In this document: in pieces, positions 30,539 to 53,903 of the stretch
Numbering within the stretch: position 1 is the first letter of the stretch
Layout of the letters: each line of letters starts with the position of its first letter
Assembly: GCA_965224485.1 (NCBI GenBank)
Contig: CBDCZH010000018.1
Coordinates: 32,001 to 96,000, forward strand
Source of the DNA: Arcobacteraceae bacterium
GTDB lineage: Bacteria > Campylobacterota > Campylobacteria > Campylobacterales > Arcobacteraceae
Length of the DNA stretch: 64,000 nucleotides
Reading direction: 5' to 3'
Position numbers and translations under genes: made by a program
The notes under the pieces: generated by a model
What the model was told of the DNA's origin: nothing
Seen by the model: only the letters and a program-made list of their open reading frames with translations
Databases searched by the model: none

Positions 30539-30540
30539 TT

Positions 30541-30834: not shown

Positions 30835-30873
30835 TTTTTCCCTTTTCTTTTCTTCTTTTAGTAATAATTATTT

Positions 30874-30888
30874 TGATAATGATAATCG
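30874..30888. promoter_or_regulatory. Fur-like box
   Basis: TGATAATGATAATCG. Confidence 0.7.
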
Positions 30889-30959
30889 AATACTTATGAA
30901 TAAGTTCTTAAATAAATACCTCTCATGACAAGCATGAAAGATATTTATTAAATAAATTC

Positions 30960-37642: not shown

Positions 37643-37657
37643 TGATAACGATTATTA
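37643..37657. promoter_or_regulatory. Fur-like box upstream of FTR1
   Basis: TGATAAC-G-ATTATTA. Confidence 0.65.
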
Positions 37658-37669
37658 TAAAGGATATTG

Positions 37670-38488
37670 ATGTTAGCTAGTTTTTTAATTACATTTAGAG
37701 AAGGATTAGAAGCTTTTTTGATTGTTGGAATTATTTTGTCTTATTTAGGAAAATTACAAGCAACAAGATTTAATAAATATATATATTTAGGTGTATTTAT
37801 GGGAATCTTTATTTCATTGCTTATTGCATATATTTTTCAAGTTGTTATTTACGGTATGGATAATGAAGTTTATCAACACTATTTGATGATAGGTATTTTA
37901 CTTTTTGCTACTATTGTTTTATCCTATATGGTAGTTTGGATGGCAAATCAGTCAAAACAAATAAAAGGCGAGATTGAAGAAAACTTAAGAAATCTAGTTA
38001 GTGCTGGAAATATTGCGGGAATGGTTTTTTTAGCTTTTTTAGCAGTTCTAAGAGAAGGTTTTGAAACTGTATTATTTTTCTCATCATTAAGTATAAGTGA
38101 AGATATTTCATTGCAAGATGGATTTATAGGGGCTTGCTTAGGTCTTGTTGTCTCTTTAATTCTAGTATATGCTTTAATGAAAGGTGCTAGAAATATTCCT
38201 TTAAGTGCATTTTTTAAATATACTGGACTTTTAATTCTTATAATTGCAGGAGGACTATTTGGTTCTGCTGTTTCTATGATGCAAGCTAGTGAACTCTTAC
38301 CTACATATATTCCTATGATATATGATATCTCTGCACTTCTAGATGACAGAGGTTTATTTGGAACATTCTTAAGAGCTTTATTTGGTTATAACTCTTCTCC
38401 AACATTTTTACATTTTCTTTCATGGTTTTTATTCATGTTAGTTGCAATATCTTTATGGAAAAAGACTTACTCATATGCAAAAAAGTGA
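37670..38488 (+). CDS. FTR1/EfeU-family iron permease
   Basis: Two RExxE motifs (REGLE, REGFE); ~7 TM; LFGY. Confidence 0.93.
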   Translation: MLASFLITFREGLEAFLIVGIILSYLGKLQATRFNKYIYLGVFMGIFISLLIAYIFQVVIYGMDNEVYQHYLMIGILLFATIVLSYMVVWMANQSKQIKGEIEENLRNLVSAGNIAGMVFLAFLAVLREGFETVLFFSSLSISEDISLQDGFIGACLGLVVSLILVYALMKGARNIPLSAFFKYTGLLILIIAGGLFGSAVSMMQASELLPTYIPMIYDISALLDDRGLFGTFLRALFGYNSSPTFLHFLSWFLFMLVAISLWKKTYSYAKK

Positions 38489-39869
38489 TGTATTAATTAT
38501 AGGCGGTGGTGTTTCTGGTTTAATTGCAGCAATTGAATTAGCTAAGCATAACAAGAGTGTGATTCTTCTAGAAAAAGAAGATGTAGTAGGAGGACAGTGT
38601 AAAACTGAAGTTCTAAAAATCAAAGATGAAGAGTATAGATTTGATTATGGTGGACATAGGTTTATTACAAATAATGAAGCTTTATTAGATTTTGTAGAAG
38701 ATATTTTAGGCGATGATTTATTAATAGCCCAAAGATCTTCTGTTATTTTACATAAAAGTAAGATGTATGAATATCCTTTAAATTTAAAAAACTTATTAAG
38801 AGTTGCTCCTTTTAAACTTCTATTTGGAGCTTTTATTGATACTTTGAAAATTATTACTAAAATTACTAAAACAGATAATAGCAATTTTAAAACGTGGATT
38901 TCTTCACGTTTTGGTAAAACTTTATATGATAATTTTTTTGGACCATATACAAAAAAACTTTGGGGAATTGAGCCTGAAAAACTTAGTGCTGATTGGGCAG
39001 GGCAAAGAATTTCTTTACTTGATTTAAAAGATGTAGCAAAAAAGCTACTTTTCCCTTCTAAAAAAACTGCAAGAACATATGCAAAATCATATAGATATCC
39101 AAGATATGGTTTTGGTGGTCTTCCTTTAAAAATGGCTAAAAAGTTTGAAGATCTTGGCGGAAAGATTATTACAAATGCAGAAGTTCTATCTTTTTCTTAT
39201 ACTGGTAATAAAATCACTTCTATTAAAACTAAAAATGATGAGTTTCAAGCTAGTGAAATAATATCTACAATGCCTTTAAATGAAATGTCTTTAAAATTAG
39301 GTTTTGATTCAAAATTGAAATTTAGATCTTTAAGATTTTTATGTTTAGGTCTAGATTTAGAAGATTTTTCGCCTCATACTTGGCAATATGTTAGTGATTT
39401 TGAATTATTACCAACTAGAATTCAAGAACCTAAGCGACGGTCACCTTCAATGTCCCCTAAGGGCAAAAGTTCAATTATGTTAGAAATTCCTTGTAATGTA
39501 AATGATAATATTTGGAATATGAGTGAAGAAAAACTTTTAGAAATAGTTAAAAAAGATTTAAAAAAGTTAAAATTTGATATAGAAGAGCATATTATTGATT
39601 ATTTTTCATTTACAACAGAACATGCGTATACCTTAATGGATGTTGATTATAATCTTAATAGAGATAAAACAATTGAATATTTAGCTAAGTTTGATAACTT
39701 ATTAATGGCTGGACGTCAAGGAACATTTAGATATATATTTTTAGATACAGCTATGGAAACAGGTTTAATGGCGGCTCAAAAGTTGCTAAATCATAAAAAT
39801 ATTACTAAAGAAGATATTTATAATCATAGAAATGAGAAGACAGTAATCGAGACAAAAAGTATAATATAA
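38475..39869 (+). CDS. FAD-dependent oxidoreductase (protoporphyrinogen oxidase/UDP-galactopyranose mutase-like fold)
   Basis: IIGGGVSG, FDYGGHRF, GRQGTFRY; ATG 38475 overlaps FTR1. Confidence 0.82.
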   Translation: MQKSDVLIIGGGVSGLIAAIELAKHNKSVILLEKEDVVGGQCKTEVLKIKDEEYRFDYGGHRFITNNEALLDFVEDILGDDLLIAQRSSVILHKSKMYEYPLNLKNLLRVAPFKLLFGAFIDTLKIITKITKTDNSNFKTWISSRFGKTLYDNFFGPYTKKLWGIEPEKLSADWAGQRISLLDLKDVAKKLLFPSKKTARTYAKSYRYPRYGFGGLPLKMAKKFEDLGGKIITNAEVLSFSYTGNKITSIKTKNDEFQASEIISTMPLNEMSLKLGFDSKLKFRSLRFLCLGLDLEDFSPHTWQYVSDFELLPTRIQEPKRRSPSMSPKGKSSIMLEIPCNVNDNIWNMSEEKLLEIVKKDLKKLKFDIEEHIIDYFSFTTEHAYTLMDVDYNLNRDKTIEYLAKFDNLLMAGRQGTFRYIFLDTAMETGLMAAQKLLNHKNITKEDIYNHRNEKTVIETKSII

Positions 39870-39907
39870 ATTTCTTTTTCTCTTTATATTTAAGATTATT
39901 TCCATAT

Positions 39908-39922
39908 CAATAATCATTATTA
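39908..39922. promoter_or_regulatory. Fur-like box upstream of the imelysin operon
   Basis: CAATAAT-C-ATTATTA. Confidence 0.6.
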
Positions 39923-39997
39923 TTATAAGTTTTACTTAAGATTTTTTATGGTACATTTATGTCATTAAAAGTCACGATAAATTAAAAGGATATATAA

Positions 39998-41323
39998 ATG
40001 AAGAAAACAAGATTAGTAGCCGCTGGTTTAAGTATAGCAGCAGCGTTAGTATTTTCAGGTTGTGTAACAAATAATATGGATGTTAGTAAAATGCAAGAGA
40101 ATAATATGCTTCAAGCATATTCATCAATTGCAGCTAAAAATTATGCAGATACATTAAAAGATGCTATTGCATTAAGATTTCAACTTGATATTTTTGCAAC
40201 TAATCCAAGTGCAGCTAATTTAGCAGCAGCTAAAAATGCTTGGTTACAAGCAAGAGAATCTTATGGTCAAACTGAAATTTTTAGACTTTCAAATGGTCCT
40301 ATTGATGCTGAAGAAGGTTGGGTTGCTGATACTTATGGTTCTTTAGAAGGGCAGTTAAACGCTTGGCCTTTAGATGAAAACATGATTGATTATACAACTG
40401 ATGCAAACGGGAAAAAAACTTCTGGTAATATTATTGATACAAAAGGTGAGTTTAACCCAGGTGGTGAAGATTCACAAGCTGTAAATGTTAAAAAAATTAC
40501 TGTTAAAGCAATTACTGCATTAAACGAAAATGGTGGAGATGCAAATGTTGCAACTGGTTATCATGCAATTGAGTTCTTATTATGGGGACAAGATCAAGAT
40601 TACACTAACTTTGTAAAAAATTCTTTTAACAAGGGTGATTTACAAGCTGGTCAGAGACCATTAAGTGACTTTACTACTGATAAGAATGCAAAAAGAAGAT
40701 TAGCTTATTTAAAAGCTGCATCTGCTAAAATAGTAAGTGATATTGCTACTGTTTCTTCTGCTTGGTCAGGCGACTCTATGTATTCAAAAGCATTAAATTC
40801 ACAATTAAGTGGTGATAATGCTTCTAAAAATATTGATAGAAAAACTGCATTAACTCAAATCTTTGCAGGTATGGGTGTATTTGTTAAGTCTGAATTAGCA
40901 AATGAAAGAATTGCGGTTGCTGTATTAACTCCTTCTGAAGAAGATGAGCATTCTTGCTTCTCTGATAATACTCATAGAGATATTGCTTTAAACTACCAAG
41001 GATTTAAAAATATTCTTTTAAGTACTTATAATGGTGTAGATTTTGGAAAAGCTCCTATTGATGCTTTAGATGCTGATGCTAAAATGAGAGTTATGGATTT
41101 AATGACTTCAATTGAAACTAAAATTGCATCAATTAATACTATTGCGCAAAACAATAGACACTTTGATAGACAAATCAGACCAAATGATCCTCAAGCTAAA
41201 GTTATTGTAAAACTTAAAAATGAGTTAAGAAAACTTGGCGATGAAATGGTTAATGTTGCACATGCTAATGGAATTAGCTTATCAGTTGAAGATGTAACTG
41301 ATGCAGAAGAAACTAAATTTTAA
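39998..41323 (+). CDS. Imelysin-family iron-regulated lipoprotein (IrpA/IcmP-like)
   Basis: Lipobox FSGC, NAWPLDE, GYHAIEFLLWGQD, EDEHSCFSDNT. Confidence 0.92.
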   Translation: MKKTRLVAAGLSIAAALVFSGCVTNNMDVSKMQENNMLQAYSSIAAKNYADTLKDAIALRFQLDIFATNPSAANLAAAKNAWLQARESYGQTEIFRLSNGPIDAEEGWVADTYGSLEGQLNAWPLDENMIDYTTDANGKKTSGNIIDTKGEFNPGGEDSQAVNVKKITVKAITALNENGGDANVATGYHAIEFLLWGQDQDYTNFVKNSFNKGDLQAGQRPLSDFTTDKNAKRRLAYLKAASAKIVSDIATVSSAWSGDSMYSKALNSQLSGDNASKNIDRKTALTQIFAGMGVFVKSELANERIAVAVLTPSEEDEHSCFSDNTHRDIALNYQGFKNILLSTYNGVDFGKAPIDALDADAKMRVMDLMTSIETKIASINTIAQNNRHFDRQIRPNDPQAKVIVKLKNELRKLGDEMVNVAHANGISLSVEDVTDAEETKF

Positions 41324-41326
41324 TAA

Positions 41327-42673
41327 ATGAAGATAATAAAAATTTTTGGTCTCATGGCATTTTTTGCCATGGGACTTTTTGCATTAGATAATAATACTTA
41401 TTATACAAAAGCAAATAGTAAAAAATCCTTTTCAAAATCATATAATAATTTAAATAACGAAGAAATAGATATTTTTATGTTGGGAAGAAGTTTTTTCAGA
41501 ATTCCTTGGGTTGAAGCACCAAGTGCAACAACAGCAAGAGATGGTTTAGGACCTTTATTTGGAGCTAATACCTGTCTTAGCTGTCATCCTAATAATTCTC
41601 AAGGTTCTGTTTATAATAAAAATAATAATATTTCAAGATCTATGGTCGTAAGACTATCTATTCCTTCAAATAATTCAAAAGAACATAAGTTACTTTTAAA
41701 AAAATCAGGTTTTATTCCTGAGCCAGTTTATGGGGCACAAGTCTCTTTAAACGGAACAAAAAATGTACCTTTTGAAGCAAAACTTAAAGTTTTATATACA
41801 AATAAATATGTAACATATAAAGATGGACAAACTGTAATTTTAAGTAAACCAAACTACTCTTTTAAAGATTTGAATTATGGAGCTTTACATAAAGATACTA
41901 TTATAACTGTAAGAAAAGCTCCTGCTTTAGTAGGGCTTGGTTTATTAGAAGACTTAAGTGATGAAGAGATTTTAAAAAATGTTGATGAGTTTGATAAAAA
42001 CAATGACGGAATTTCTGGCAAAGCTAATATGGTTTATTCACTTGCTGTAAAAAGTGAGTTATTAGGTAGATATACATATAAGGCAAGTGCACCAACAGTT
42101 AAACAACAAAGTGCTGCTGCTTTTCATAATGATATGGGTCTAACAACAACATATTTTCCAAATGATAACTGTACAAAATATCAAACAAAATGTTTAAATT
42201 CCCCAAAAGCAAGAGATGCTATTGATGTAACAGATTTTAGACTTTATTCGATTGATTTTTATTTAAGACATTTAAAAGTGCCAAAATCTAAAATAAAAGA
42301 AAAAGAAGGTGAAGCTTTATTTGCAAAACTATCCTGTACCTCTTGTCATATTAGTTCTTTTACAACAAAGAAAAATATGATTATCAAACCTTATAGTGAT
42401 TTTTTATTACATGATATGGGTGAGGGTTTAAGTGATGGACGAAGTGAATTTAGGGCAACAAAGAATGAGTGGAGAACAACACCTTTATGGGGTATAAACT
42501 CTTATAGAAAAACACTGGGTAAAAAACCAGATTATTTACATGATGGTCGAGCTAAAAGTATAGAAGAAGCTATATTATGGCATGGTGGAGAAGCTTTAAA
42601 CTCAAGAAACTCTTTTATCTTAATGGATCAAATCAAAAGAGATAAAATAATTAAATTTATAGGAACACTTTAA
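41327..42673 (+). CDS. Di-heme oxidoreductase (DHOR) family protein
   Basis: DGLGPLF, CLSCH, CTSCH, LHDMG, WRTTPLWG, LHDGRA. Confidence 0.92.
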   Translation: MKIIKIFGLMAFFAMGLFALDNNTYYTKANSKKSFSKSYNNLNNEEIDIFMLGRSFFRIPWVEAPSATTARDGLGPLFGANTCLSCHPNNSQGSVYNKNNNISRSMVVRLSIPSNNSKEHKLLLKKSGFIPEPVYGAQVSLNGTKNVPFEAKLKVLYTNKYVTYKDGQTVILSKPNYSFKDLNYGALHKDTIITVRKAPALVGLGLLEDLSDEEILKNVDEFDKNNDGISGKANMVYSLAVKSELLGRYTYKASAPTVKQQSAAAFHNDMGLTTTYFPNDNCTKYQTKCLNSPKARDAIDVTDFRLYSIDFYLRHLKVPKSKIKEKEGEALFAKLSCTSCHISSFTTKKNMIIKPYSDFLLHDMGEGLSDGRSEFRATKNEWRTTPLWGINSYRKTLGKKPDYLHDGRAKSIEEAILWHGGEALNSRNSFILMDQIKRDKIIKFIGTL

Positions 42674-43631
42674 TGAAAAAAATTATTCTACTACTTACTT
42701 TATTTTCTTTCTCACTGTTTGCAAAACAAGAAGTGATGAAATCAATTTTAGACAATGTTTTATTAGCTAATTCACAAAATGCGATGAATGTAGCTTTAGA
42801 ATTTTCTGCGAATATAAAAGATAAAAAAGATTTAACAATATTAAAAAAAGATTTTACAAAACTTGTTAGTGCTTGGAAAAAAGTAGAAACTTTTTATTTA
42901 GCTGCTGAATTAAATGAAGATACTATTGATACTCCAAGATATATTGATATTTTCCATAATATAAAAGAAAACTTACATGAGCAAATTCAAAGAGTAATTG
43001 ATTCAAAAGATGATGTAGAAGTTGAAATGTATAAAAACTCTTTTAAAACTATAAATGCTTTAGAATATGCATTATATACAAAAGGTTTTGATGATAGAAG
43101 ATATGAAATCATAAATGTAATCATGAATAATATGTTAAATAGACTTGATGAAATAAATGACGTTTATTTAAATGATACGTCTAAGTTCTTAAATGATACT
43201 AAATGGGCAAATGCGGCTATTATTAATATGTTAATTGATAGTTCTTTTAAATTAAGAGATTGGCGTATTGGAGATATGGCTGGTTTATCTTTAAAGTACA
43301 AGAACAAGCCTAATAACAAAAGAGCTGAATATTACTTAAGTTTAAATTCTAAAATAGCCCTAAGAGCTATTTTAGAAGTACATGATTCAATAATCAACTC
43401 TAGTTATGGTGATTTTTTAATTTCCAAAGGAGCTAAAGCTCAAATTACATTAATAAGAAAACTTATTGCTAAGTCCTTAGAAAACTTAAAATATTTACAA
43501 AATGATGATTATTTAGCTAAAGATGTAAAAAAACTATATGTACAAGTTGATAAACTTCATAAAACATATTATGTAGCTTTAATAAACTCTTTAGAATTAC
43601 TGCAAAAATATTAGATGCTGATGGTGACTAA
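42673..43631 (+). CDS. Second imelysin-like protein (frameshift near the 3' end)
   Basis: Signal peptide, ALEY motif; restoring one base near 43594 gives ...ITAKILDADGD* ending at 43631, the typical imelysin DGD tail. Confidence 0.8.
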
Positions 43632-44530
43632 TGAGTGAATACCTTGTTTTAGAATATTTCTTTGATGCCAATAAAAGAGTTTTTTATTTATATTTATTAA
43701 GCTCATTTTTTATTGCCTTAGTTTATTTATATTTTAATGCAAAAGATAGAAGAATAAATCTAAGTGCAAAACTATGGTTACATCCTAGTTCCATCTTAGA
43801 TTATTCATATTTTTTTCTTTCATATTTTATAAAAACTTTACTTATCTTTCCTCTTGTTCTTAGTGCTAAAACTGTAGCTGTTTATACGCTGATGTTTTTA
43901 CTTGAGAATTTTAACTTTACTTCTTTATCTTGGTCATTTGAAAGTATAATCATTGTTTTTACTCTTACTTTATTTGTTTTAAGTGATTTTACTAGGTATT
44001 TACTTCATCGGCTTTTACATGCAGTTCCATTTTTATGGGAATTCCATAAGGTTCATCATAGTGCTAAGGTTTTAACTCCTTTTACTTTTTATAGGGTTCA
44101 TCCAATAGAAAATATACTTTTTGGATTTAGATATGTTTTAACAATAGGTATAACAACTGGTGTATTTATTTACTTATTTGCAGGTAAAATTGATCTTTAT
44201 GATGTTATTGGAGTAAATGTATTTGCTTTTATTTTTTCACTATTAGGAAGTAATTTAAGACATTCTCATATTAAATTTAAATATCCAAGATTTTTAGAAA
44301 CATTTTTAATCTCACCTTATATGCACCAAATTCATCATAGTAAAAAACATTTTAATAAAAATTTTGGTGGTTATCTCTCGATTTGGGATTATTTATTTAA
44401 GACTCATTTATACTCAAGTGAAGTTAAAAATATGATTTTTGGATTAAAAAATATTCAAAATAAAGATTATGATTCACTTGTAAAATTATTATTAACACCA
44501 TTTAAAAGATTAATAAATAAAGCTAATTGA
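43631..44530 (+). CDS. Sterol desaturase/fatty acid hydroxylase family protein
   Basis: HRLLH, HKVHH, HSH, HQIHH histidine boxes. Confidence 0.9.
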   Translation: MSEYLVLEYFFDANKRVFYLYLLSSFFIALVYLYFNAKDRRINLSAKLWLHPSSILDYSYFFLSYFIKTLLIFPLVLSAKTVAVYTLMFLLENFNFTSLSWSFESIIIVFTLTLFVLSDFTRYLLHRLLHAVPFLWEFHKVHHSAKVLTPFTFYRVHPIENILFGFRYVLTIGITTGVFIYLFAGKIDLYDVIGVNVFAFIFSLLGSNLRHSHIKFKYPRFLETFLISPYMHQIHHSKKHFNKNFGGYLSIWDYLFKTHLYSSEVKNMIFGLKNIQNKDYDSLVKLLLTPFKRLINKAN

Positions 44531-44616
44531 TTATTTTAATAATAACTAATATCAATTAAGTTTTGATTAAGAGCTATGCTCGTATTATTTGTATATAAAT
44601 ATAAAAAAGGTAAATT

Positions 44617-45765
44617 ATGAAAGCAAAATATCTACTTTTAGCTAGTTTAGCTATTCTACTATCAGCTTGTAACGGAACACTTAATGAAGCAGAAAAAATC
44701 AAAGTTCAAGAGGAAAAAGCTGTTTTAGGAAAAGTTTTATTTTTTGATAAAAATCTATCAAATAATAGAACACAGTCATGTTCAACATGTCATAATCCAG
44801 AAGCAGGTTTTGTTGATGATAGAGATAACGGTGTACAAAAACAAGCTTCTTTAGGTGATGATGGTCATTCAATTGGAGATAGACAAGCACCTAGTGCTGC
44901 TTATGCAATGTTTAGCCCTGTTTTTCATTATGATAAAAAGAAAAAAGAGTATATTGGTGGACAATTTTGGGATGGTAGAGAACCTACTTTAGCAGGACAA
45001 GCAGGTGGTCCTCCTACAAATCCAGTTGAAATGGGTATGAAATCAAAAGAAGCTATGATAATAAGACTACAAGAAAATCCTTATTATGTACAAAGTTTTA
45101 AAAAACTGTATGGAGAAGATATTTTCCTTGACATTGATGCTTCTTATAAAGCTATGACTAAAGTTATTGAAGCTTTTGAGCAAACAAAAGAGTTTGCTCC
45201 TTTTGATTCTAAATATGATAGATATTTAAAAGGTGAATATGATGTTACTGTATTAGAAGATCTTGGTATGGCACTATTTTTCTCAAACAATAATAACTCT
45301 TGTGCTTCTTGTCACTTATTGAAAAAAGAGGGTCAAAGTGGCGAAACATTTACAAGTTATGAGTTTCATAATATTGGAACACCAATTAACAGTGATTTAA
45401 GAGCAAAAAATGGTGCAAGTGCAATTGATAATGGTTTATTAAATAATCCAATGGTTAGTGATATTAAACATAAGGGAAAATATAAAGTTCCAACACTTAG
45501 AAATGTTGCGGTAACAGGACCTTATATGCACAATGGAGTTTTTAAAGATTTAAGAACTGTTGCTTTATTTTATGATAAGTATAATAATAAAACAAGACTT
45601 ATTAATCCAGAAACAAAAAAACCTTGGGCTGCGCCTGAAGTAAAAGAAACAATCAATTTAGATGATTTAAAATCTAAAAAACAAAGTGATAGAAAAATTG
45701 ATGCAATAGTAGCTTTTATGAAAATGTTAACTGATAAAAGATATGAACACTTATTAGAAAAGTAA
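44617..45765 (+). CDS. Di-heme cytochrome c peroxidase/MauG-family lipoprotein
   Basis: Lipobox LSAC, CSTCH, GQFWDGR, CASCH, PTLRNV, PYMHNG. Confidence 0.92.
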   Translation: MKAKYLLLASLAILLSACNGTLNEAEKIKVQEEKAVLGKVLFFDKNLSNNRTQSCSTCHNPEAGFVDDRDNGVQKQASLGDDGHSIGDRQAPSAAYAMFSPVFHYDKKKKEYIGGQFWDGREPTLAGQAGGPPTNPVEMGMKSKEAMIIRLQENPYYVQSFKKLYGEDIFLDIDASYKAMTKVIEAFEQTKEFAPFDSKYDRYLKGEYDVTVLEDLGMALFFSNNNNSCASCHLLKKEGQSGETFTSYEFHNIGTPINSDLRAKNGASAIDNGLLNNPMVSDIKHKGKYKVPTLRNVAVTGPYMHNGVFKDLRTVALFYDKYNNKTRLINPETKKPWAAPEVKETINLDDLKSKKQSDRKIDAIVAFMKMLTDKRYEHLLEK

Positions 45766-45767
45766 TA

Positions 45768-45796
45768 ATTAACAGCTGAATTCTTCTGCTGTTAAT
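45768..45796 (+). terminator. Hairpin after the peroxidase gene
   Basis: ATTAACAGC...GCTGTTAAT. Confidence 0.45.
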
Positions 45797-45860
45797 AATA
45801 AGTAAAGTATTATTTTTATAGTATTTTGATATTAAGAGTCAATCGCAAAAAAGGAATTAT

Positions 45861-46430
45861 ATGAAAGTTTTAAAAAAAGTAGTTTTATTACTTGTTTTTT
45901 GTTTATTTACATTCTCTTCTTTAGAGGCTTATTCATATGCTTCAGCAGGAAAAGAACCAACATTAGATGCACAAGATGCAATTTTAAATGCCATAAATGA
46001 AAGTGATTTTAAAAAAGCTAATGATACTTTTGTTTTATATAAGAAAAACTATCAATATTTAAATGATGATTTTAATAATAAACTTTATTCATCTTTGCAA
46101 AATGCAATAAAAGCAAAAGATAAAAAACTTATAGTTAAGTGGTTAAGAGTTTCACTTGCTCTTGAAGTTCAAAGACGACTTGAGGGTGGTTTAGAAAATA
46201 TAAGTACTTTTAATGTTTCAAAAGTAATGCTTGCAAAAGCTAATAAATTTTATAAAATCTTATCAGGTAGTTTAGAATTCAAAACTAATAAAAAGCTAAA
46301 AAAAGCTATAAAAAACTGTATTGGTGCTATTGGTAATCCTGGACTTTTTGGTGTTGGGGCTAAAAAAGCTAATATAAAAGAATACAAAAAAAATCAAAAT
46401 ATTGCAGTTGAAATTCTAAAATCTTTATAA
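45861..46430 (+). CDS. Secreted helical hypothetical protein
   Basis: Signal peptide LEA/YSYASAGKEP; GNPGLFGVG. Confidence 0.8.
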   Translation: MKVLKKVVLLLVFCLFTFSSLEAYSYASAGKEPTLDAQDAILNAINESDFKKANDTFVLYKKNYQYLNDDFNNKLYSSLQNAIKAKDKKLIVKWLRVSLALEVQRRLEGGLENISTFNVSKVMLAKANKFYKILSGSLEFKTNKKLKKAIKNCIGAIGNPGLFGVGAKKANIKEYKKNQNIAVEILKSL

Positions 46431-47663
46431 ATGAAATTTCATAAAATTATTATAGGTATAAGCACTCTAGCTTATGCCTATTTTATTTTATCTTACCCTA
46501 TATCTTATTATAATGATGATTCTTTATTTCTCTCTCGTGGAATTGAACATTTTTCTGTTATAGATTTCTCCCCACACTTTCCAGGTTATGTTTCTTTAAT
46601 ACTCCTAGCAAAGTTTATAAATTTTTTTCTTTTAGATGTTAAGTTATCACTTTTTGCTCTTAGCTCTTTTTGTGCTATTTTCACTCCTTTTATAATCTAT
46701 TTGTATGTTAAAAAAATCAAAAACAAAGATGTAGCTCTTATAGCTTTTTTTCTAAGCCTAAGCTCCCCTTATCTAAATAATTTTGCTCTCTCACTACTTT
46801 CTGATTCTGTTGGTTTTTTCTTCTTATTTTTAGCTCTATATTTATTAGAAGATAAAAAATATAAAATGAGTGGAATAATTTTAAGCCTTGCTTTTTTTGC
46901 AAGACCTTCTTATTTTGTATTTTATGCCTTTGGTTTACTGTATTTAGTTTTTTTTAGAAAAGAAGCTTTGAAAAGTATTCTCATCTATTTTTTCCTAAGT
47001 TTTATTCTATTTTTTTTATATATTTATATAACAAATGGCAATTTATATTTTATAGAAGCAAAAAGGTTTATCTTAGGTCATTTTAATATTTGGGGTGTAG
47101 GACAGAACTCTTCTTATACTTGGTTCTCAAATGTTTTCACGTTGATAAATCTTCCTTTTTTACTTCTTTTTATTTTTAAATATGATAAAAAATTTATCTT
47201 AATGTATATATTTTTTATATCTTATTTTTTATGGATTATTTTTTATCAAAATCCTGAAAATTTACGTCATTTAATTCCCTTAGTTTTTATAAGTACAATA
47301 TTAATCTCAAAGGTTTTAGAAAATTTCAAAAGTATAGTTTTCTTTATTTTGATTTTAAATATTTCTTTTATGTTTAGTTTTACTCAAAAATATTCACCTA
47401 TTATGCAAATTTCTAAACTTATTAATAAAGAAAAATTTATTCTTGTTACAAATCACTCTATAGAGCTCTTGCGTGAGTCAAATTTCCTTGTGGTAGATAA
47501 GTTTTATAAGGCAAATGCTTCGTATATTAGTAAAAACGATAATGTTATTATAATAACAACAGCAAAGAAGGAACTTCCTAAGTCAAGAGCCTTTTTTGGG
47601 AGGTTTATAGGTGAAAGAACTACATATCTTTATTCTAAAATCCCTCTAAACGCCACTAAGTAG
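46431..47663 (+). CDS. Multi-pass membrane protein, GT-C (PMT-like) glycosyltransferase-like
   Basis: NDD after the first TM, PHFPGY, LLSD, ARP, RHLIP. Confidence 0.6.
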   Translation: MKFHKIIIGISTLAYAYFILSYPISYYNDDSLFLSRGIEHFSVIDFSPHFPGYVSLILLAKFINFFLLDVKLSLFALSSFCAIFTPFIIYLYVKKIKNKDVALIAFFLSLSSPYLNNFALSLLSDSVGFFFLFLALYLLEDKKYKMSGIILSLAFFARPSYFVFYAFGLLYLVFFRKEALKSILIYFFLSFILFFLYIYITNGNLYFIEAKRFILGHFNIWGVGQNSSYTWFSNVFTLINLPFLLLFIFKYDKKFILMYIFFISYFLWIIFYQNPENLRHLIPLVFISTILISKVLENFKSIVFFILILNISFMFSFTQKYSPIMQISKLINKEKFILVTNHSIELLRESNFLVVDKFYKANASYISKNDNVIIITTAKKELPKSRAFFGRFIGERTTYLYSKIPLNATK

Positions 47664-47687
47664 TCACTGGATAAAGTTTTTCCTTTA

Positions 47688-47702
47688 TGATAATAATTCT
47701 TA
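47688..47702. promoter_or_regulatory. Fur-like box
   Basis: TGATAAT-A-ATTCTTA. Confidence 0.6.
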
Positions 47703-47769
47703 TTTTAAGTATTAATTAAGATTTATTAGCTTAAAATTCAACCAAGACAATCTTATACTAAGGAATTAA

Positions 47770-49794
47770 ATGAAAAAATTAATTAAGTTATCAGTTGTTG
47801 CGTCATTAATTGCAACATCTGTTTATGCAAGTGATTATAAGAGTACAAAAACTTCTGTAATTGACAAAAGATTCGATACAGCAGGTTCAATGTTTGCTTA
47901 TACTGAATTTGAATTATCTGGTGAACCAATGTCAGAAGGTCTTGGACTTGATTTAGATACTTTAGATCCAAATGCAAGAAACCAACCAACTGAATTTGAT
48001 TATACAGCTGGAATTGAATCATATGAGTATTCAGAAGAAGCTATGTATGCATTAAATTACCAATCTAAAATGGGACCTCATTTAGTAAATGGTTTATTAA
48101 ATGCTAAACGTGGTGGAGATATGAAATCTTTAGCAAAAAGATTTATCAAATTTGCTAAAGCTACTGGAAATGATGCTTCTGTTTTACCATTAAATATGCA
48201 TCCAACTGCACTTCCATATATTTCAGGACTTCCAGAATTTGCACAAAAAGTTGATATGACTGTTGTAAATAATGATGAAGTTGTTGTATTTAAACATGGT
48301 AAAGAAAAAACTATTAAAACAGCAGTTCCTGCTTATTTAAGAGATTATAAAACTTTATCTTGGGTTGAAAAAGGTATGGATAAAACATTTAATCCAGCTG
48401 CATTTGGAGCTGCTTTATTAAAAGATACTATGTGGGCACAAGATTTCTTAGGTGGAATGCATATTATTGCTAATGATGAAGAAGTAGAAGCAACAAGTTC
48501 AACTATGGATCAAGATGGTAAACATGCTCTTGGTGTTTCATCAGCTGATGGTGTAAATGGGGCTATTTTAACTGAACTTTCTTGGGAAAGAATTCTTTTC
48601 ATGCAAGAGAAATTAGGATCTAATGGTAAAAAATTAGGTTTAAGTTTTACTCCTTCATATGATGCAAGTAAACCAGTATGGTTTGCACATAAAGTATCTG
48701 TTAAAGAAGGTAAAAAGAATGGTACTAAAAGTATTGCTTCTTTAAAAATCAAAGAAGGACATTCTTCTCTTAGAGATACTTGGCAAGTATTATGGCCAAT
48801 TGCTGAATTCTATGCTTATTCTGATCAAAGAGTTAACAATGCTAATCAAAATCCAGCATTTTTAAGTGTATTTGATGGTGACCCTTTCAAAAAAGCACCT
48901 AAAGCAAATGTGGATGCTAAAAGAGGAAATGATATCAAAGCTGATGATGCTTTCTCTGTTGCTGCAAATATTGCTAACTTAATGTTTGAAAATATTTCAA
49001 CTATCCATTACAATAAAAAAATGGGAACATTTGTTGATACATTTGATGGCAAAAAAGGTAACATAGTTACAACTTTTGATGCTGCTTATTCTATTGAAGC
49101 TTTAAGAATTTTCCAAAGAGCTATTGATGCTTTACCAGTTGGTTATGGATCTGCTGATGGTGCTAAATCATTAGAAACAGCTCAGGGTAAAGAAGCTTTA
49201 ATGTTAATCAAAAAACAAGCTGATTTCTTAATTAAAAATCTTAAAAACAAAAATGGTTTATATTCAAGTGCTTATAACTTAAAATCTTCTGCTAAAACTG
49301 GTCTTACTGTTGGAACACAATTCGCAGTAGTTCGTGGATTAACAGCTGCTTATTTAGCAACTAAAACTGAAATGTACAGAAGCGAAGCTCGAGCTTTAAT
49401 GATTTCAATTGAAAAAAATATGTTTGATAAAAACATAGGAACTTATGTTGATTCAACAAAAGAATATACTCCTTACTCAATTGGTGCAGTTAGTGGTGGT
49501 TTAAGAGATGCTATTAATCATTTAAAAAATGTAGGTAGCGAAAAAGCTCCATCATTAGAATTAAAAAATCTTACTGATAGATTTACAAGATGGTTCCAAT
49601 TAGTTATTAATGGAAACTCAACAACTGAGGGTGCTCAATTAGCTGAATGGTTACTTGATACTGGTGAGTTTGTTGATGCAAGTGATATGAAAAATGCAAA
49701 TAGTGATGGTGATAATGTTGTATCTGTTACAGCAGCTGGTGGTAAATATGGTACTGCTATGACTATGGCTTCTAAAGTTAAACTTTCAAAATAA
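47770..49794 (+). CDS. Large secreted protein of unknown function
   Basis: Signal peptide VYA/S; acidic motifs YTEFELSGEP and GIESYEYSEEAMY; strong RBS. Confidence 0.85.
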   Translation: MKKLIKLSVVASLIATSVYASDYKSTKTSVIDKRFDTAGSMFAYTEFELSGEPMSEGLGLDLDTLDPNARNQPTEFDYTAGIESYEYSEEAMYALNYQSKMGPHLVNGLLNAKRGGDMKSLAKRFIKFAKATGNDASVLPLNMHPTALPYISGLPEFAQKVDMTVVNNDEVVVFKHGKEKTIKTAVPAYLRDYKTLSWVEKGMDKTFNPAAFGAALLKDTMWAQDFLGGMHIIANDEEVEATSSTMDQDGKHALGVSSADGVNGAILTELSWERILFMQEKLGSNGKKLGLSFTPSYDASKPVWFAHKVSVKEGKKNGTKSIASLKIKEGHSSLRDTWQVLWPIAEFYAYSDQRVNNANQNPAFLSVFDGDPFKKAPKANVDAKRGNDIKADDAFSVAANIANLMFENISTIHYNKKMGTFVDTFDGKKGNIVTTFDAAYSIEALRIFQRAIDALPVGYGSADGAKSLETAQGKEALMLIKKQADFLIKNLKNKNGLYSSAYNLKSSAKTGLTVGTQFAVVRGLTAAYLATKTEMYRSEARALMISIEKNMFDKNIGTYVDSTKEYTPYSIGAVSGGLRDAINHLKNVGSEKAPSLELKNLTDRFTRWFQLVINGNSTTEGAQLAEWLLDTGEFVDASDMKNANSDGDNVVSVTAAGGKYGTAMTMASKVKLSK

Positions 49795-49822
49795 TTTTTT
49801 AAAAAAGTTATTTTGCACAAAA

Positions 49823-49855
49823 CCCTCTAGGCACTACACCTAGGGGGCTTTTTTT
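49823..49855 (+). terminator. Rho-independent terminator
   Basis: CCCTCTAGG/CCTAGGGGG stem followed by a T run. Confidence 0.8.
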
Positions 49856-49963
49856 CTAATTTAATAATAATAACTCCCATTTTCACTATCAATAATCTTT
49901 GCTTTCTTTAAGAATAGCCGGCTATAATTTCATTATAATTTATTTTTAATAAAAGGTTAAGAA

Positions 49964-52900
49964 ATGAAAATAGCATATATAGAACTTTCAATTGTTCTAA
50001 TGTTTTTAACAGGTATCTTACAATGGGATTTAATAGATATTCCTTGGGTTTATTTTACTTTTTTACAAGCTACTCACATTATTGCATCAATTTTAGTTGC
50101 AGTTTTTTTAATTATTCCTTTCGTGAATATGCATACGTATAAATACAGAGTTAATATAATGGCTAGAAAAAGAAATAGTACAAATGGAATGATTTTAGGT
50201 ATTGTTTTATTACTTATAATTGCAAGTGGTGTTTACTTGTTTTTTGTAGGTAACAGAGGTGGAGATGATATAGGGTATTATTCATTTTTAATTCACTTAT
50301 ATGGTTCATTTTTATTACTGTTTTTCTTATGGTATCACTCTATGTTTTCAAATGCAAATATAAGAAGAAAAAAAGCAGCTAGAGAAAAAAGAGCAAAAGA
50401 GAATGCCCTACATGCAAAAATGGCAAATGTTAAAAGTTTTGCTTTTATTCTTTTAAGCATAGCTTTTTTATATCCAAGTTTAGCTTACTCAAGTGTAAGT
50501 TCTTCTGCTTTATATTTAAGCAAAGATTCAAAATATTTATACTCTGCTAACTTAGATGCTGGATCAGTTACAAAAATTGATGCTTTGAGTGGAAAAGTAA
50601 TTTTTGAGAAAGTTTTAGGAGAAGATATTAGAAGAATAGCTTTTAATAGTGATGAATCTGTTTATGCTGTAACTGATTATATGAAAGATAAAGTAATTTT
50701 TTTAAATAAAAACAATGAAATTATAAAAGAAATTAAAACTAAAAATAGACCTCATGCTATTATTTATGATGCTAAAAACTCTTACTTCTTTGTAACTATT
50801 TTTGAAGATAATGAACTTTTAGTAATTGATGATAAAAATTTTGAAATTATTAAAACTATTAAAACATTCAAAACTCCAAGAGGTTTGGCTTTAACTGATG
50901 ATGGAAGATTATTAGTAAGTCACTCTATGATTGGAATGGTATCTATTTATGATAGTAGATCTTTTGCAAGATTAAAAACTATTACTTTACATTCAACACA
51001 GAATAAAAATGAGTTTGTATCTCAAGGGAAACCTAGACTTTTAGATGATATTGAGATAAAACCAGATGGAAAAGAAGCATGGTTACCTCATGTTTTATGG
51101 AACTTTGACCATGCTTTTCAATTTCAATCAACAGTTTTTCCAAGTATCTCGATTATTTCTTTAGAAAAGGGACATGAAAAAGAGTTAAATGAAAAAAGAA
51201 AACATCTTTTTAAAGCAATTAATATTTTAAATAATGCAAACTCAACTATGATTGTATCAAATCCTTGGGATTTAGCTTTTTCATCTGATGGTGCAAAAGC
51301 TTTTGTTACCCTTGCTGGTAGTGAAGATGTTATGGTTTTAAATATTGGACGAAGCATGGGAAGTGCTAAGAAAAAAAGACATAGAAAAAGAGGAAAAAGA
51401 GCAGGAAAAGGTGCAAAAGTAACACAAATACTTAGAGCATATCCTAATAATACAAATCCACAAGCAATAATAACAAGTCCAAAGAGCAATGATATTTATG
51501 TACAAAATGCATCAAGACTTGATCTTACTTTATTAGATAGTGGTGGTAGCCATCCTTTTGCAAGACTTACAGTTAAAATAGACTCTTTTTCAAAAGTAGT
51601 AAAAAAAGATTTATTGGCTAAAAATATAAGAGAAGGTAAAACTTTATTTAATAATGCAAATACTAATACAAATAAAGAAACACCAATGGCAGGAGATTTT
51701 TGGATGTCGTGTAATTCATGTCATTTTGAAGGTTTTAACTTTACAAATGGTTTCTTATTTACTGATACAAAATTAAATAAATCACTTAAATCAACTATAG
51801 GGCATGATACCTTAAAGGGTTTTATTTCTAAAGATCCTTTAGGTGATTATGTACGAATAGCTAGAGATACTCAAGGTGGTATGGGAGCAGACGAAAAAGC
51901 AGAACTTACAATAGTTGACCCAGCTAAAATGAGTGCTAAGTTAAAAACTAAAATGCAAGCTCTTCATTCATATGTAAAATCAAAAGATAATTTACGTTAT
52001 TTATCTAACTGGATTAAACTAGAAGAAGATGTTGAAGAATACCATGTAGAAGATTGGACAAATTCTGCAAAATGTAAATCTTGTCATAATGAAATTTTTA
52101 ACCAATGGGCTGATTCAAATCATAGAAATCTAGTTGGAACTAACCCTTATTATATTGTTGTAGAAAATGTAGCTGCTCAAGTTGAGGGTGAAGAGTTTAG
52201 ACAGTGGTGTATGGGATGTCATAGTCCAAGTGCAATAACAACAGGTCTTGTTAAAAAAACAACTCATACTATGGATAAATTTTTTGAAAGTGGAGCAAAA
52301 ACACTAATAAATGAATTAAAAGTTCATGGAAATTCAAAACTAGAAGAGGGTGTTTCTTGTGTAGCTTGTCATAGAATTACAAAAGTTGAAGATGCAGGTG
52401 GAAATGCTGCTTATACTTTAGCTGTAAAAAGTAGACCTAAGTATGCTTTTGAAGATAGTGACAATGCAGGTTTACAATTTTTAAGTGAAAAACTAATTAA
52501 TTCAAAACCACAAAAACACATAGACTCATATATGAAACCAATTTATAAAAAAAGTGTTTATTGTGCAACTTGTCATGATGAATTTACACCTGGAAATGGA
52601 AGTAAAATTGTATCAACTTTTAAAGAGTGGGAAAACTCAAAATATAATAATCCAGATGATCCAAGTGAACATAAATCTTGTATAGATTGTCATATGACAT
52701 ATTTAAAAAATGATAAGTTATCTCCTTTAAGAGGTAGATCAACTGATGGTGGAAAAATTAAAGATGATGTAAAAGTTCATTATTTTGCAGGTGCAAATCA
52801 TTTCTTATCTGGACTTAAAAGTAAAGAACATGAAGACCAAACTTTACAACTTTTAAGAACATCAGCAAAATTAGATGTTAATGTAAAAGATGGAAAAGTG

Positions 52901-53350
52901 ATTGTTGGAGTTAAAAACGTAGGAGCTGGGCATCATTTACCAACAGGAGTTGCCGATTTTAGAGAATTATGGTTAGATATTACACTTAAAGATGCAAATG
53001 GAAAAGTTGTATTTGAAAGTGGAAAACTAAAAGATGATGGTAACTTAGATACAGATGCAAGACCATTTATGAAAGTATTTGGTGATAAAAATGGAAAACC
53101 AGTTGGACTTTTATTTTGGAAATATGAAAAACTTTTAAGTGATACAAGAATTAAAGCAGGGGAGAGACGAATTGAAACATATGATATCTCAAAACCTGAG
53201 AAACTTATTTATCCTTTAAGTGTTATAGTAAAACTAAATTTCAGAATTTATCCTCAGTGGGTTACTGATGCTGTTAGAAAAGCTTATCCTCAACTACCAA
53301 ATCCACCAGTAGTTGAATTAGAAAAAATAATGAAAGACTTTAGTAAATAA
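49964..53350 (+). CDS. Fusion of cytochrome-b-like TM domain, YVTN-type beta-propeller and multiheme cytochrome c (6 CxxCH)
   Basis: Four His-bearing TM segments, propeller repeats (TPRGLAL, NPWDLAFS), CNSCH, CKSCH, CMGCH, CVACH, CATCH, CIDCH, AGHHLPTG. Confidence 0.85.
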   Translation: MKIAYIELSIVLMFLTGILQWDLIDIPWVYFTFLQATHIIASILVAVFLIIPFVNMHTYKYRVNIMARKRNSTNGMILGIVLLLIIASGVYLFFVGNRGGDDIGYYSFLIHLYGSFLLLFFLWYHSMFSNANIRRKKAAREKRAKENALHAKMANVKSFAFILLSIAFLYPSLAYSSVSSSALYLSKDSKYLYSANLDAGSVTKIDALSGKVIFEKVLGEDIRRIAFNSDESVYAVTDYMKDKVIFLNKNNEIIKEIKTKNRPHAIIYDAKNSYFFVTIFEDNELLVIDDKNFEIIKTIKTFKTPRGLALTDDGRLLVSHSMIGMVSIYDSRSFARLKTITLHSTQNKNEFVSQGKPRLLDDIEIKPDGKEAWLPHVLWNFDHAFQFQSTVFPSISIISLEKGHEKELNEKRKHLFKAINILNNANSTMIVSNPWDLAFSSDGAKAFVTLAGSEDVMVLNIGRSMGSAKKKRHRKRGKRAGKGAKVTQILRAYPNNTNPQAIITSPKSNDIYVQNASRLDLTLLDSGGSHPFARLTVKIDSFSKVVKKDLLAKNIREGKTLFNNANTNTNKETPMAGDFWMSCNSCHFEGFNFTNGFLFTDTKLNKSLKSTIGHDTLKGFISKDPLGDYVRIARDTQGGMGADEKAELTIVDPAKMSAKLKTKMQALHSYVKSKDNLRYLSNWIKLEEDVEEYHVEDWTNSAKCKSCHNEIFNQWADSNHRNLVGTNPYYIVVENVAAQVEGEEFRQWCMGCHSPSAITTGLVKKTTHTMDKFFESGAKTLINELKVHGNSKLEEGVSCVACHRITKVEDAGGNAAYTLAVKSRPKYAFEDSDNAGLQFLSEKLINSKPQKHIDSYMKPIYKKSVYCATCHDEFTPGNGSKIVSTFKEWENSKYNNPDDPSEHKSCIDCHMTYLKNDKLSPLRGRSTDGGKIKDDVKVHYFAGANHFLSGLKSKEHEDQTLQLLRTSAKLDVNVKDGKVIVGVKNVGAGHHLPTGVADFRELWLDITLKDANGKVVFESGKLKDDGNLDTDARPFMKVFGDKNGKPVGLLFWKYEKLLSDTRIKAGERRIETYDISKPEKLIYPLSVIVKLNFRIYPQWVTDAVRKAYPQLPNPPVVELEKIMKDFSK

Positions 53351-53385: not shown

Positions 53386-53903
53386 ATGAAAAATATAAAA
53401 AATTACTTTGCTATAATTATCATGATATTTGTTTTTAATGGGTGTCTTGCTCCCTTAGTATCTTATAGCAATAGTTCAAAAGTATTGTCTCTTAAATTAT
53501 ATGATGAGCAACGTAAAGAAGTCAAATTTGAGAATGAAAAGTATAAAACCAGTGCCGGTTATTGTATTTCTAAATCATTCTTATTATCTTCAGATAATGT
53601 TGAAAACTATGGTTTCTTATCTGTAGAGCATATTAAGATTAAAGACAGATGTGAATGGAAAGGATTAGCTGAAGGTTTTTATATTGAAAAAATAAAAAGA
53701 ATTTTTGATAATAGTGAAGTTAATCTTATTAAAAGAACTGAACTTGGTCAATATATATTTTCAGAATATGAAGTAGTAGGTGTACAAAATGTATCACTTA
53801 TTGAATTGTGAGGGGAGCAAAAGAAAATACTTTTATTCTTGATTTTGATGGTAAATTATCAAAAGAACTACAAAAAGACTTAAAAAGTCAATATCTGAAA
53901 TAA
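53386..53903 (+). CDS. Hypothetical lipoprotein (probable frameshift at ~53810)
   Basis: Lipobox FNGC; a shifted frame continues GAKENTFILDFDG...YLK* to 53903, just before a terminator. Confidence 0.65.

Follow-up and report, generated by a model that had tools for sequence, protein, structure and literature searches.

We analyzed a stretch of 64,000 nucleotides from an Arcobacteraceae bacterium (contig CBDCZH010000018.1; hereafter the window), in which eleven closely packed open reading frames (ORFs), all on the + strand, occupy positions 37667-53350. A first-pass annotation had regarded them as one iron-uptake system built around the permease FTR1. Our results correct this picture to two iron modules, one nested in the other. 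Six of the genes, encoding FTR1, a flavoprotein, a 189-amino-acid (aa) exported protein, a GT-C-like membrane protein, a 674-aa exported protein and a 1128-aa haem fusion protein, form a core that probably represents an iron-uptake system not described so far. The other five genes constitute an iron-regulated module of their own, of an already known type, which landed inside the cluster in this genome. With regard to the function of the core, we tentatively prefer the reading that 37644-39869 and 45861-53350 together represent one copy of a conserved cluster for iron uptake under iron starvation, in which a haem chain would carry electrons from periplasmic Fe(II) to quinone, the 674-aa protein would hold iron, and FTR1 would import the oxidised product. 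No paper describing this six-gene set was found in the literature searched. The families that had been assigned to the eleven co-oriented genes were borne out by the ORFs and by Pfam and NCBIfam searches. The host genome has a size of 2.79 Mb and a G+C content of 26%, and the closest homologues of the window's proteins bear Arcobacter and Poseidonibacter names.

The core became apparent from the genes surrounding the 674-aa gene, the signature gene of the cluster. We considered the best 80 of 226 related stretches (one genome per species), each with up to 10 kb per side and all picked via the 674-aa protein, and counted genes by tblastn with the window's proteins as queries. The 80 loci span Campylobacterota, Gammaproteobacteria and Alphaproteobacteria. 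A haem fusion gene lies beside the 674-aa gene in 72 of them, the GT-C-like gene is present in 62, the flavoprotein and 189-aa genes in 60 each, and the FTR1 gene in 48, where it is found in every gene order. The expectation that the 189-aa, GT-C-like, 674-aa (all 80 loci) and haem-fusion genes co-occur with FTR1 across phyla was thus confirmed. Likewise, the 189-aa, 674-aa and multihaem members of the partner set proposed for FTR1 stood, but the flavoprotein, an equally conserved member, had been omitted. Clustering of the ORFs of the 80 loci revealed no further recurrent flank families, except for a family of ~160 aa and antisense shadow ORFs. The ~160-aa family corresponds to the N-terminal membrane module of the haem fusion, encoded as its own gene.

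The order of the genes differs between groups. In Campylobacterota it is FTR1, flavoprotein, 189-aa, GT-C-like, 674-aa and fusion gene, and in Alphaproteobacteria it is 674-aa, fusion, FTR1, flavoprotein, 189-aa and GT-C-like gene. In Vibrionaceae, Moritella, Endozoicomonas and others, the 674-aa gene is followed by the separate membrane module (b module), FTR1, flavoprotein, 189-aa and GT-C-like genes and a gene for a propeller-haem protein. A fourth order was found in Aeromonas caviae, in which b module, propeller-haem protein, FTR1, flavoprotein, 189-aa and GT-C-like genes stand together and the 674-aa gene is located ~81 kb off. Since the content is constant while the order is shuffled, and since a fusion or fission event adds to this, we regard it as strong evidence for a functional unit. 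The distribution of the cluster in Arcobacteraceae is patchy (16 of 184 genomes, 6 of 22 genera), and in a FastTree tree the copies from Campylobacterota form one clade, which adjoins the alphaproteobacterial copies.

The five genes from imelysin to MauG (39998..45765, + strand) lie outside this core. They encode an imelysin lipoprotein (39998-41323; Pfam Imelysin (Peptidase_M75), 1.5e-62), a di-haem DHOR protein with two CXXCH motifs (41327-42673; Pfam DHOR, 9.2e-76), a second imelysin of 313 aa (42673-43614; Pfam Imelysin (Peptidase_M75), 3.4e-13), a membrane protein of the fatty-acid-hydroxylase family (43631-44530; Pfam FA_hydroxylase, 3.8e-25) and a MauG/MbnH-like di-haem peroxidase (44617-45765; Pfam CCP_MauG, 1.8e-48), all on the + strand. 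According to tblastn, each of the five is present in none of the 80 loci. The spacing between the flavoprotein and the 189-aa gene, which is ~40 bases in relatives, is 6 kb here. The block is far commoner in the family than the core, with DHOR present in 116 of 184 Arcobacteraceae genomes compared to 16 of 184 for the 674-aa gene. Two genomes of the same genus that do not have the 674-aa gene (G164 and G165) contain the same five genes in the same order, contiguous and elsewhere, and none of the window's flanking genes is found near the block in either of them. Only one of five cluster-bearing relatives has a DHOR homologue, which is located ~1.2 Mb from its cluster. Finally, the block is preceded by its own Fur-like box (two overlapping boxes at 39903..39927) and ends in a hairpin. 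These findings argue against the view that all eleven genes form one operon-like system with the imelysins as EfeO-like partners of FTR1. The view could draw on the co-orientation and close packing of the genes, on the Fur-like box before the imelysin gene and on the Fur regulation of imelysin operons and their comparison with EfeUOB in the sections of PMC3143127 considered here, and we nonetheless judge it to be very improbable.

In its first three genes, the block is similar to the Fur-regulated imelysin-DHOR-imelysin operons of the PA4370-PA4373 and VC1264-VC1266 type, as covered by the same sections of PMC3143127. The region 39998-43614 has the same order of imelysin, DHOR and second imelysin (Peptidase_M75, DHOR, Peptidase_M75 according to Pfam) with a Fur-like box before it, and the first imelysin carries GYHAIE at residue 187, in agreement with the motif GxHxxE. 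These sections also state that GxxxxE replaces GxHxxE in second imelysins of the IPPA type (PMC3143127); a plain pattern search of the second imelysin of the window, made without an alignment to IPPA, matched neither of the two. The block differs from the described operons in the addition of the fatty-acid-hydroxylase-family and MauG/MbnH-like genes, here as well as in the same-genus genomes, and in its position nested in another cluster, outside the conserved FTR1 set. Inside the start of the DHOR gene, a stem of 12 pairs followed by a T run is located at 41348-41376, which may be due to chance or may be an internal attenuator of the imelysin module. A different insertion was observed in a Sulfurimonas metagenome-assembled genome (MAG), in which genes for a multicopper oxidase and CopB (L011:4991-7453) are placed exactly at the flavoprotein/189-aa junction. 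This junction seems to collect periplasmic oxidase modules.

Within the core, the haem fusion combines several domains. Its first part (residues 1-135; 49964..50368, + strand) consists of four hydrophobic helices, in which H38, H57, H111 and H125 do not vary among 20 sequences of the fused and split kinds. This four-helix membrane module is fused in 31 loci and encoded by a separate ~160-aa gene in 41, and it is predicted to be a di-haem b cytochrome. Four-helix b cytochromes with four histidines, such as FdnI, HyaC and CybB, transfer electrons from periplasmic donors to quinone. The link of a multihaem protein to the quinone pool that had been put forward in the first-pass annotation is plausible, as the fusion opens with such a module bearing four invariant histidines. 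The remainder of the protein (50369..53350, + strand) opens with a basic linker and another hydrophobic segment, the fifth. A YVTN/YncE-like beta-propeller (approximately residues 176-560) comes next, followed by one CCP-like haem c site at 583, a region of five haems resembling ExtK (704-910) and a domain at the C-terminus. The six CXXCH motifs (at 583, 704, 749, 799, 867 and 906) are kept in 60 of 61 homologues, and many polar residues of the propeller are invariant. The assignment of these domains is based on weak matches, among them weak Pfam hits of the 1128-aa protein to cytochrome and beta-propeller families. ExtKL (NF040886) matched residues 700-1098 (9.7e-16) with 57.3 bits, which is below its cut-off of 250, and YncE (NF052280) matched at 5.3e-12 with 45.2 bits, below its cut-off of 400. 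Among PDB sequences, the protein matched 1l0q, 3vgz (E 1.1e-07, residues 178-317) and 5ze8. The likeness of the first haem site to CCP is suggested by a Pfam match at E 0.0064 and by an intermediate sequence from Anoxybacillus (see below). A direct BLASTP comparison of the haem fusion with the DHOR and MauG-like proteins of the window gave haem-motif matches only, at E 0.13 or worse.

The 674-aa protein (47770..49794, + strand) has no Pfam family at E up to 10 and no match among PDB sequences. We found 435 database relatives, of which the best 120 belong to Campylobacterota, Gammaproteobacteria and Alphaproteobacteria and show 52-85% identity over the full length. An alignment of 15 sequences showed 53-85% identity across phyla, with long invariant runs, seven invariant tryptophans and many invariant aspartates and glutamates. 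The protein is cysteine-free, has a signal peptide as judged by eye, and contains invariant acidic, tyrosine-rich N-terminal segments, which are modelled at low confidence. Its AlphaFold2 (AF2) model (predicted template modelling score, pTM, 0.82; predicted local distance difference test, pLDDT, 72.7) is a six-hairpin (alpha/alpha)6 toroid with large insertions. Structure comparison with VIA yielded Z scores of 20-22 to GH105, GH76, GH88 and AGE-family epimerases, with ~300-335 of 650 residues aligned; these include the GH105 structure 4xuv (Z 21.7, root-mean-square deviation 3.3, 295 aligned) and the cellobiose 2-epimerase 4z4j (Z 21.5, root-mean-square deviation 3.2, 327 aligned). The best Foldseek match had an E of 2.8e-06, and no single structural family stands out in these comparisons. 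The label "DUF4856", the source name of one Photobacterium homologue, was rejected for the window's protein on the basis of the Pfam search mentioned above. A terminator-like stem-loop followed by a T run is located after the gene (49823..49847, + strand). A strong hairpin (≤ -18 kcal/mol) was found at this position in 53 of 78 loci, whereas it occurred in 4 of 78 shuffled sequences and, downstream of the flavoprotein gene, at 5 of 60 sites, and this conserved hairpin fits a 674-aa protein that is made in excess.

Distant relatives of the 674-aa protein provide a link to haem. Three of them with 26-27% identity (P0185, P0197 and P0224) have a C-terminal cytochrome c domain, and others (P0136, P0143, P0147 and P0151) carry type IX secretion sorting tails. 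On plasmid pDSM15939_1 of the Gram-positive Anoxybacillus amylolyticus (L094:8893-12991), a homologue with 43.6% identity precedes a lipoprotein that combines a propeller with two haem sites. This lipoprotein is homologous to residues 192-788 of the haem fusion (E 1.7e-75) and more weakly to DHOR (1.5e-09) and MauG (1.8e-07), and the minimal pair is located directly after a menaquinone-synthesis operon. Judging from these sequences, the toroid family is wider than the cluster and has been linked with haem more than once. A solitary homologue with 51% identity was also observed between insertion sequence (IS) elements on a plasmid of Aeromonas hydrophila (L090:11001-13001) and on two plasmids of A. 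media, where it adjoins glgC and an EAL-domain gene. Its occurrence on these large Aeromonas plasmids shows that the 674-aa gene moves on plasmids.

The remaining four core proteins differ in how far they resemble known families. FTR1 permeases are typified by two REXXE motifs in transmembrane helices, and the 273-aa permease of the window (37667..38488, + strand; Pfam FTR1 (PF03239), 1.2e-45, 156.5 bits with a cut-off of 25.3) has REGLE at residue 11 and REGFE at residue 129, in which R, E, G and E are invariant in 18 cluster permeases. Its score for the EfeU equivalog (NF041756) of 198.6 bits is below the cut-off of 255. The flavin adenine dinucleotide (FAD) flavoprotein (38442..39869, + strand; Pfam Amino_oxidase/FAD, 6.9e-26) belongs to the PRK07208 family and passes NF005547 (PRK07208.1-3, "hypothetical protein") with 449.7 bits compared to a cut-off of 380, and fails the UDP-galactopyranose mutase (UGM) model TIGR00031 (89.4 bits compared to 303.75). 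UDP-galactopyranose mutases are nevertheless the nearest solved chains (E 4.8e-17), the match covering residues 10-235 in the N-terminal half. Many residues of the flavoprotein are conserved in at least 95% of 59 sequences, and no signal peptide was seen in it. Its ORF overlaps the end of the FTR1 gene, with the ATG at 38475 being the likelier start.

The 189-aa protein (45861..46430, + strand) is exported, all-helical (AF2 pLDDT 92.9) and belongs to no known family. It has 323 homologues in the database at E ≤ 1e-5, and in an alignment of 24 sequences little or no variation is seen in the predicted mature N-terminus YSYxAAGKEP and in a GNPGxFGxG loop. For a hidden imelysin or EfeO, hhalign gave probabilities of 0.1% and 1.8%. 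A profile search of the PDB returned nothing under E 0.07, Foldseek gave a best E of 0.22 (EfeO at rank 3, E 0.68), VIA matched generic four-helix bundles with a best Z of 9.0 and no specific relative, and the ESM Atlas returned unnamed clusters only, so that these searches indicate no more than helical bundles. A cluster look-up of five representatives likewise returned no useful names besides one Bacillus label. The complex prediction of FTR1 with the mature 189-aa protein scored 0.00 in both runs, which speaks neither for nor against binding. The start of the GT-C-like gene (46431..47663, + strand) abuts the stop of the 189-aa gene. The encoded polytopic membrane protein is a marginal match to Pfam PMT_2 (PF13231; 6.5e-06, 26.9 bits with a cut-off of 26.1). 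An acidic pair in the first extracytoplasmic loop is a feature of GT-C glycosyltransferases, and D29 and D30, in the putative first loop, are conserved in at least 95% of 59 sequences.

Iron control of the cluster is suggested by Fur-like boxes, which we scored against a 19-mer consensus, GATAATGATAATCATTATC, and not with a matrix trained on these phyla. The boxes that had been noted at 37643, 39908 and 47688 were recovered upstream of FTR1 (37644..37662, 14/19), before the nested module (39903, 14/19, and 39909, 15/19) and ~70 nt upstream of the 674-aa gene (47689..47707, 14/19), and the one described as weaker at 44540 indeed scored 13/19 only (at 44535). Three of six upstream regions in the stretch reach 14, which is modestly above chance (~0.006, binomial estimate). 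In the genome's own background, 7.3% of 1225 upstream regions reach 14/19 and 1.7% reach 15/19; since the genome is AT-rich and 14/19 is so common in it, the window alone provides modest support. The strong support for the putative boxes is their conservation in other genomes. In 50 of the 80 loci (16 of 18 in Campylobacterota, 34 of 62 in Pseudomonadota), the 300 nt that precede the 674-aa gene contain a match of at least 14/19, at a median distance of 81 nt from the start. In the controls, such a match occurred in 3.8% of 6137 random windows, in 3.1% and 10.9% of same-locus windows in the two phyla, and in 7.3% of 371 regions upstream of flank genes. These counts include related species, which are not independent; the signal is nonetheless seen in genomes of 36-65% G+C. 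The earlier placement of the 189-aa, GT-C-like, 674-aa and haem-fusion genes behind Fur-like boxes is hence in line with a box position that is conserved across phyla. The own genome encodes four Fur-family proteins, and the cluster would be iron-repressed in this organism.

Expression data from Aeromonas point in the same direction. The sections of PMC5987420 that we considered report that, in A. hydrophila exposed to dipyridyl, YP_857055-58 changed by log2 values of 3.28, 2.39, 1.69 and 1.81 at the mRNA level and by 0.98-1.65 at the protein level, whereas YP_857060 was up by 1.28 and YP_857061 was unchanged at 0.003. In the same sections, YP_857056 is the sole gene with an FTR1 Gene Ontology (GO) term, and its neighbour YP_857057 has protoporphyrinogen-oxidase-like GO terms (PMC5987420). 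Members of the 189-aa family occur in A. hydrophila and in six more species of the genus, and the gene order of A. caviae (haem protein, FTR1, flavoprotein, 189-aa gene) fits the numbering of YP_857055-58. These four consecutive genes, which are induced by iron limitation, are thus likely the A. hydrophila counterpart of the cluster.

In the preferred reading, periplasmic Fe(II) would give its electrons to the membrane-anchored cytochrome, and these would likely pass the six c-haems and then the predicted di-haem b module to reach the quinone pool. The six-hairpin 674-aa protein, as an abundant component, would hold iron, and FTR1, where present, would import the oxidised iron. The flavoprotein, the 189-aa protein and the GT-C-like protein would form a unit whose likely task is to glycosylate a periplasmic component and thereby modify or mature it. 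We thus infer haem b binding, quinone coupling, iron binding by the 674-aa protein, the direction of electron flow and the roles of the flavoprotein, 189-aa and GT-C-like proteins. A redox partnership is suggested since the six CXXCH motifs are kept, since relatives of the 674-aa protein occur with cytochrome c, and since the Anoxybacillus pair lies beside menaquinone genes. Oxidation of Fe(II) is favoured because the characterised partners of FTR1 do so, because the first haem site is peroxidase-like, and because four-helix b cytochromes usually reduce quinone. Among these partners, Fet3, EfeB/EfeO, FtrB and P19 oxidise iron or hand it over on the outer face.

A comparison with known FTR1 systems shows both parallels and differences. 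FtrABCD of Bordetella, Brucella and Burkholderia consists of the P19-like FtrA, the cupredoxin FtrB, the FTR1 permease FtrC and the membrane polyferredoxin FtrD. As in that system, the genes that accompany the FTR1 permease of the cluster specify a redox protein of the periplasm and an electron carrier of the membrane. The two systems are iron-regulated, and both suggest an extramembrane oxidation from which the electron is carried into or across the membrane. In contrast, P19, cupredoxin and polyferredoxin are absent from the eleven proteins according to Pfam and from the recurrent neighbours in the 80 loci, the carriers of the cluster would be c- and predicted b-haems instead of copper and Fe-S, three further genes are conserved, and FTR1 can be missing. 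The claim that cupredoxin, DyP peroxidase and P19 families are absent was confirmed for the eleven proteins by the Pfam scan. The FTR1/ChpA/ferredoxin operon mentioned in PMC1698941 belongs to the FtrABCD type as well. With EfeUOB and EfeUOB-M (E. coli, B. subtilis, P. syringae), the cluster shares the combination of an FTR1-family permease, a periplasmic haem enzyme and a periplasmic metal-handling protein, and weak and transitive matches suggest a peroxidase-like character (CCP/MauG type) for the first of the fusion's haem sites. It differs in that the core has neither the DyP peroxidase EfeB nor the cupredoxin-M75 protein EfeO, the imelysins belonging to a separate module, in that its permease scores below the EfeU cut-off, and in that the 189-aa protein has no significant likeness to imelysin or EfeO. 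The succession of Fre1 and Fet3-Ftr1 in yeast also combines a membrane b-type cytochrome system with an FTR1 permease for the same metal at the outer membrane face. In contrast to it, the core has no multicopper oxidase (apart from the single insertion in L011), a haem c chain and a propeller replace the flavocytochrome, and the quinone pool is predicted to donate or accept the electrons.

Several points weigh against Fe(II) oxidation coupled to FTR1. Eleven loci keep the flavoprotein, 189-aa and GT-C-like genes beside the 674-aa and haem genes without FTR1, and in three of five tested genomes of FTR1-less loci, one of which is complete, no FTR1 gene was found with the Pfam model. If the system were an oxidase lacking its permease, Fe(III) would have to enter by another importer. 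Eight loci with full flanks contain just the 674-aa gene and the haem protein amid unrelated genes, and a search with the 189-aa profile, run without a positive control, gave no match in any of five tested genomes with such a minimal pair. The 80 loci were chosen through the 674-aa protein alone, from 226 related stretches. The b module is far below the cut-offs of Pfam models (DUF4405 (PF14358), E 0.017 for the split form; Ni_hydr_CYTB (PF01292), E 0.53 for the window), so that the putative haem b sites are read solely from the conserved histidines. The ExtKL family is known from conduits of Fe(III)-reducing Geobacter, which fits the opposite direction of electron flow. Moreover, three members look glycan- rather than metal-related, namely the six-hairpin 674-aa protein, the GT-C-like protein and the flavoprotein with its likeness to UDP-galactopyranose mutase. 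In addition, the window's own boxes score just 14-15/19, within reach of 7.3% of this genome's upstream regions, and the link to Aeromonas is drawn from synteny in another species and from GO terms.

The loci without FTR1 also bear on the view that FTR1 is the centre of the system, which they contradict together with the FTR1-free genomes and the bare pairs. Since FTR1-less loci and bare-pair loci exist, the 674-aa and haem proteins are the tightest pair. The flavoprotein, 189-aa and GT-C-like genes travel together, and FTR1 is frequent yet dispensable and not the hub of the cluster. In one complete genome that lacks FTR1, a Terasakiella chromosome, two FTR1-less copies of the cluster (L032 and L033) are located ~500 kb apart, with identical 674-aa proteins and matching coordinates.

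The persistence of the module in the three FTR1-free genomes and as a bare 674-aa/haem pair would be easy to explain if it feeds Feo. Such a role would result from the same cluster and iron regulation with a reversed electron flow, in which quinol drives a periplasmic ferric (chelate) reductase via the b module and the six c-haems. Fe(III) on organic ligands would then be held by the 674-aa protein or the propeller, and Fe(II) would enter by Feo, or by FTR1 after local re-oxidation. We consider this possible if doubtful, nearly as likely as the oxidase reading, and easier to reconcile with FTR1-less genomes. It is consistent with the three FeoB genes of the own genome, one of which lies 9 kb upstream, where it shares a Fur-like box with a PepSY_TM gene, and with the ExtKL-like haem region. 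The oxidising modules at the flavoprotein/189-aa junction (multicopper oxidase and CopB in L011, imelysin/DHOR here) could provide re-oxidation, as Fet3 does after Fre1. However, 58 of the 60 loci with the 189-aa gene have no insert at the flavoprotein junction and hence offer FTR1 no separate oxidase at this place, transitive homology makes the first haem site CCP/MauG-like, which fits an oxidising enzyme, and four-helix b cytochromes of such a layout mostly reduce quinone.

A glycan-related function of the cluster has to be considered as well. The fold of the 674-aa protein with its similarity to glycoside hydrolases and epimerases, its seven invariant tryptophans and many acidic residues, the conserved DD pair of the GT-C-like protein and the UGM likeness of the flavoprotein could indicate an iron-regulated glycan system of the periplasm or envelope, in which these three proteins would synthesise or alter a glycoconjugate; the haem protein would then work on a different redox substrate, and FTR1, being dispensable, would be a frequent passenger. 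In a single case, an Arcobacter MAG (L006:12140-13165), a gene for an NAD-dependent sugar epimerase/dehydratase is inserted between the 674-aa gene and the haem fusion gene, which may bear on this function. Against it stand the conserved Fur-like box directly before the six-hairpin gene, the linkage of FTR1 in 48 of the 80 loci and in every gene order, the six-hairpin relatives fused to cytochrome c, which no known glycosidase needs, and the flanks of the 80 loci, in which no genes for sugar-nucleotide or polyprenyl-sugar synthesis recur. We therefore consider a glycan system improbable.

To our knowledge, all known partners of FTR1 permeases are copper proteins, DyP peroxidases, P19 or polyferredoxins. 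In its most specific form, the preferred reading of Fe(II) oxidation would make the cluster a copper- and oxygen-independent, haem-based ferroxidase-permease, in which the propeller-hexahaem protein oxidises Fe(II) and passes electrons through the di-haem b module to quinone, a new six-hairpin family of iron-binding proteins hands Fe(III) to FTR1, and the trio of flavoprotein, 189-aa and GT-C-like proteins matures periplasmic parts by glycosylation. We hold this complete form to be rather unlikely. If true, iron uptake would feed respiration rather than cost energy. The cluster may account for copper- and oxygen-independent iron uptake by microaerophiles and facultative anaerobes living at oxic-anoxic interfaces. 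Its genes form a partner set of FTR1 that differs from the known ones and that is conserved in marine Campylobacterota, Vibrionaceae, Moritella, Aeromonas, Endozoicomonas, Pseudovibrio and relatives. It holds three nameless protein families, and the identity of 53-57% between phyla of one of these, a "hypothetical protein", indicates a tightly constrained activity. The Fur-like boxes and the response of the likely Aeromonas counterpart to iron limitation make the function directly testable in genetically tractable organisms.

Three further features of the window adjoin the cluster. A 141-aa lipoprotein-like ORF (53386-53811), which matches no Pfam or NCBIfam family, starts 36 bases past the haem fusion; with a counterpart in none of the 80 loci, it was rejected as a member of the cluster. 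Divergent from FTR1 lies a response-regulator-PAS-EAL gene (35563-37548, - strand), which was rejected as well, as it has matches in seven of the 80 loci and in one of them (L057) at 30% coverage or more, and which is probably unrelated to the cluster. Further upstream, 4 kb from the cluster, genes for a TonB-dependent receptor and then a PepSY_TM protein, FeoA and FeoB are encoded on the - strand (26289-33254). The box of the PepSY_TM-feoAB genes (30869-30893, hit at 30875) scores 14/19, with 13 consecutive consensus bases.

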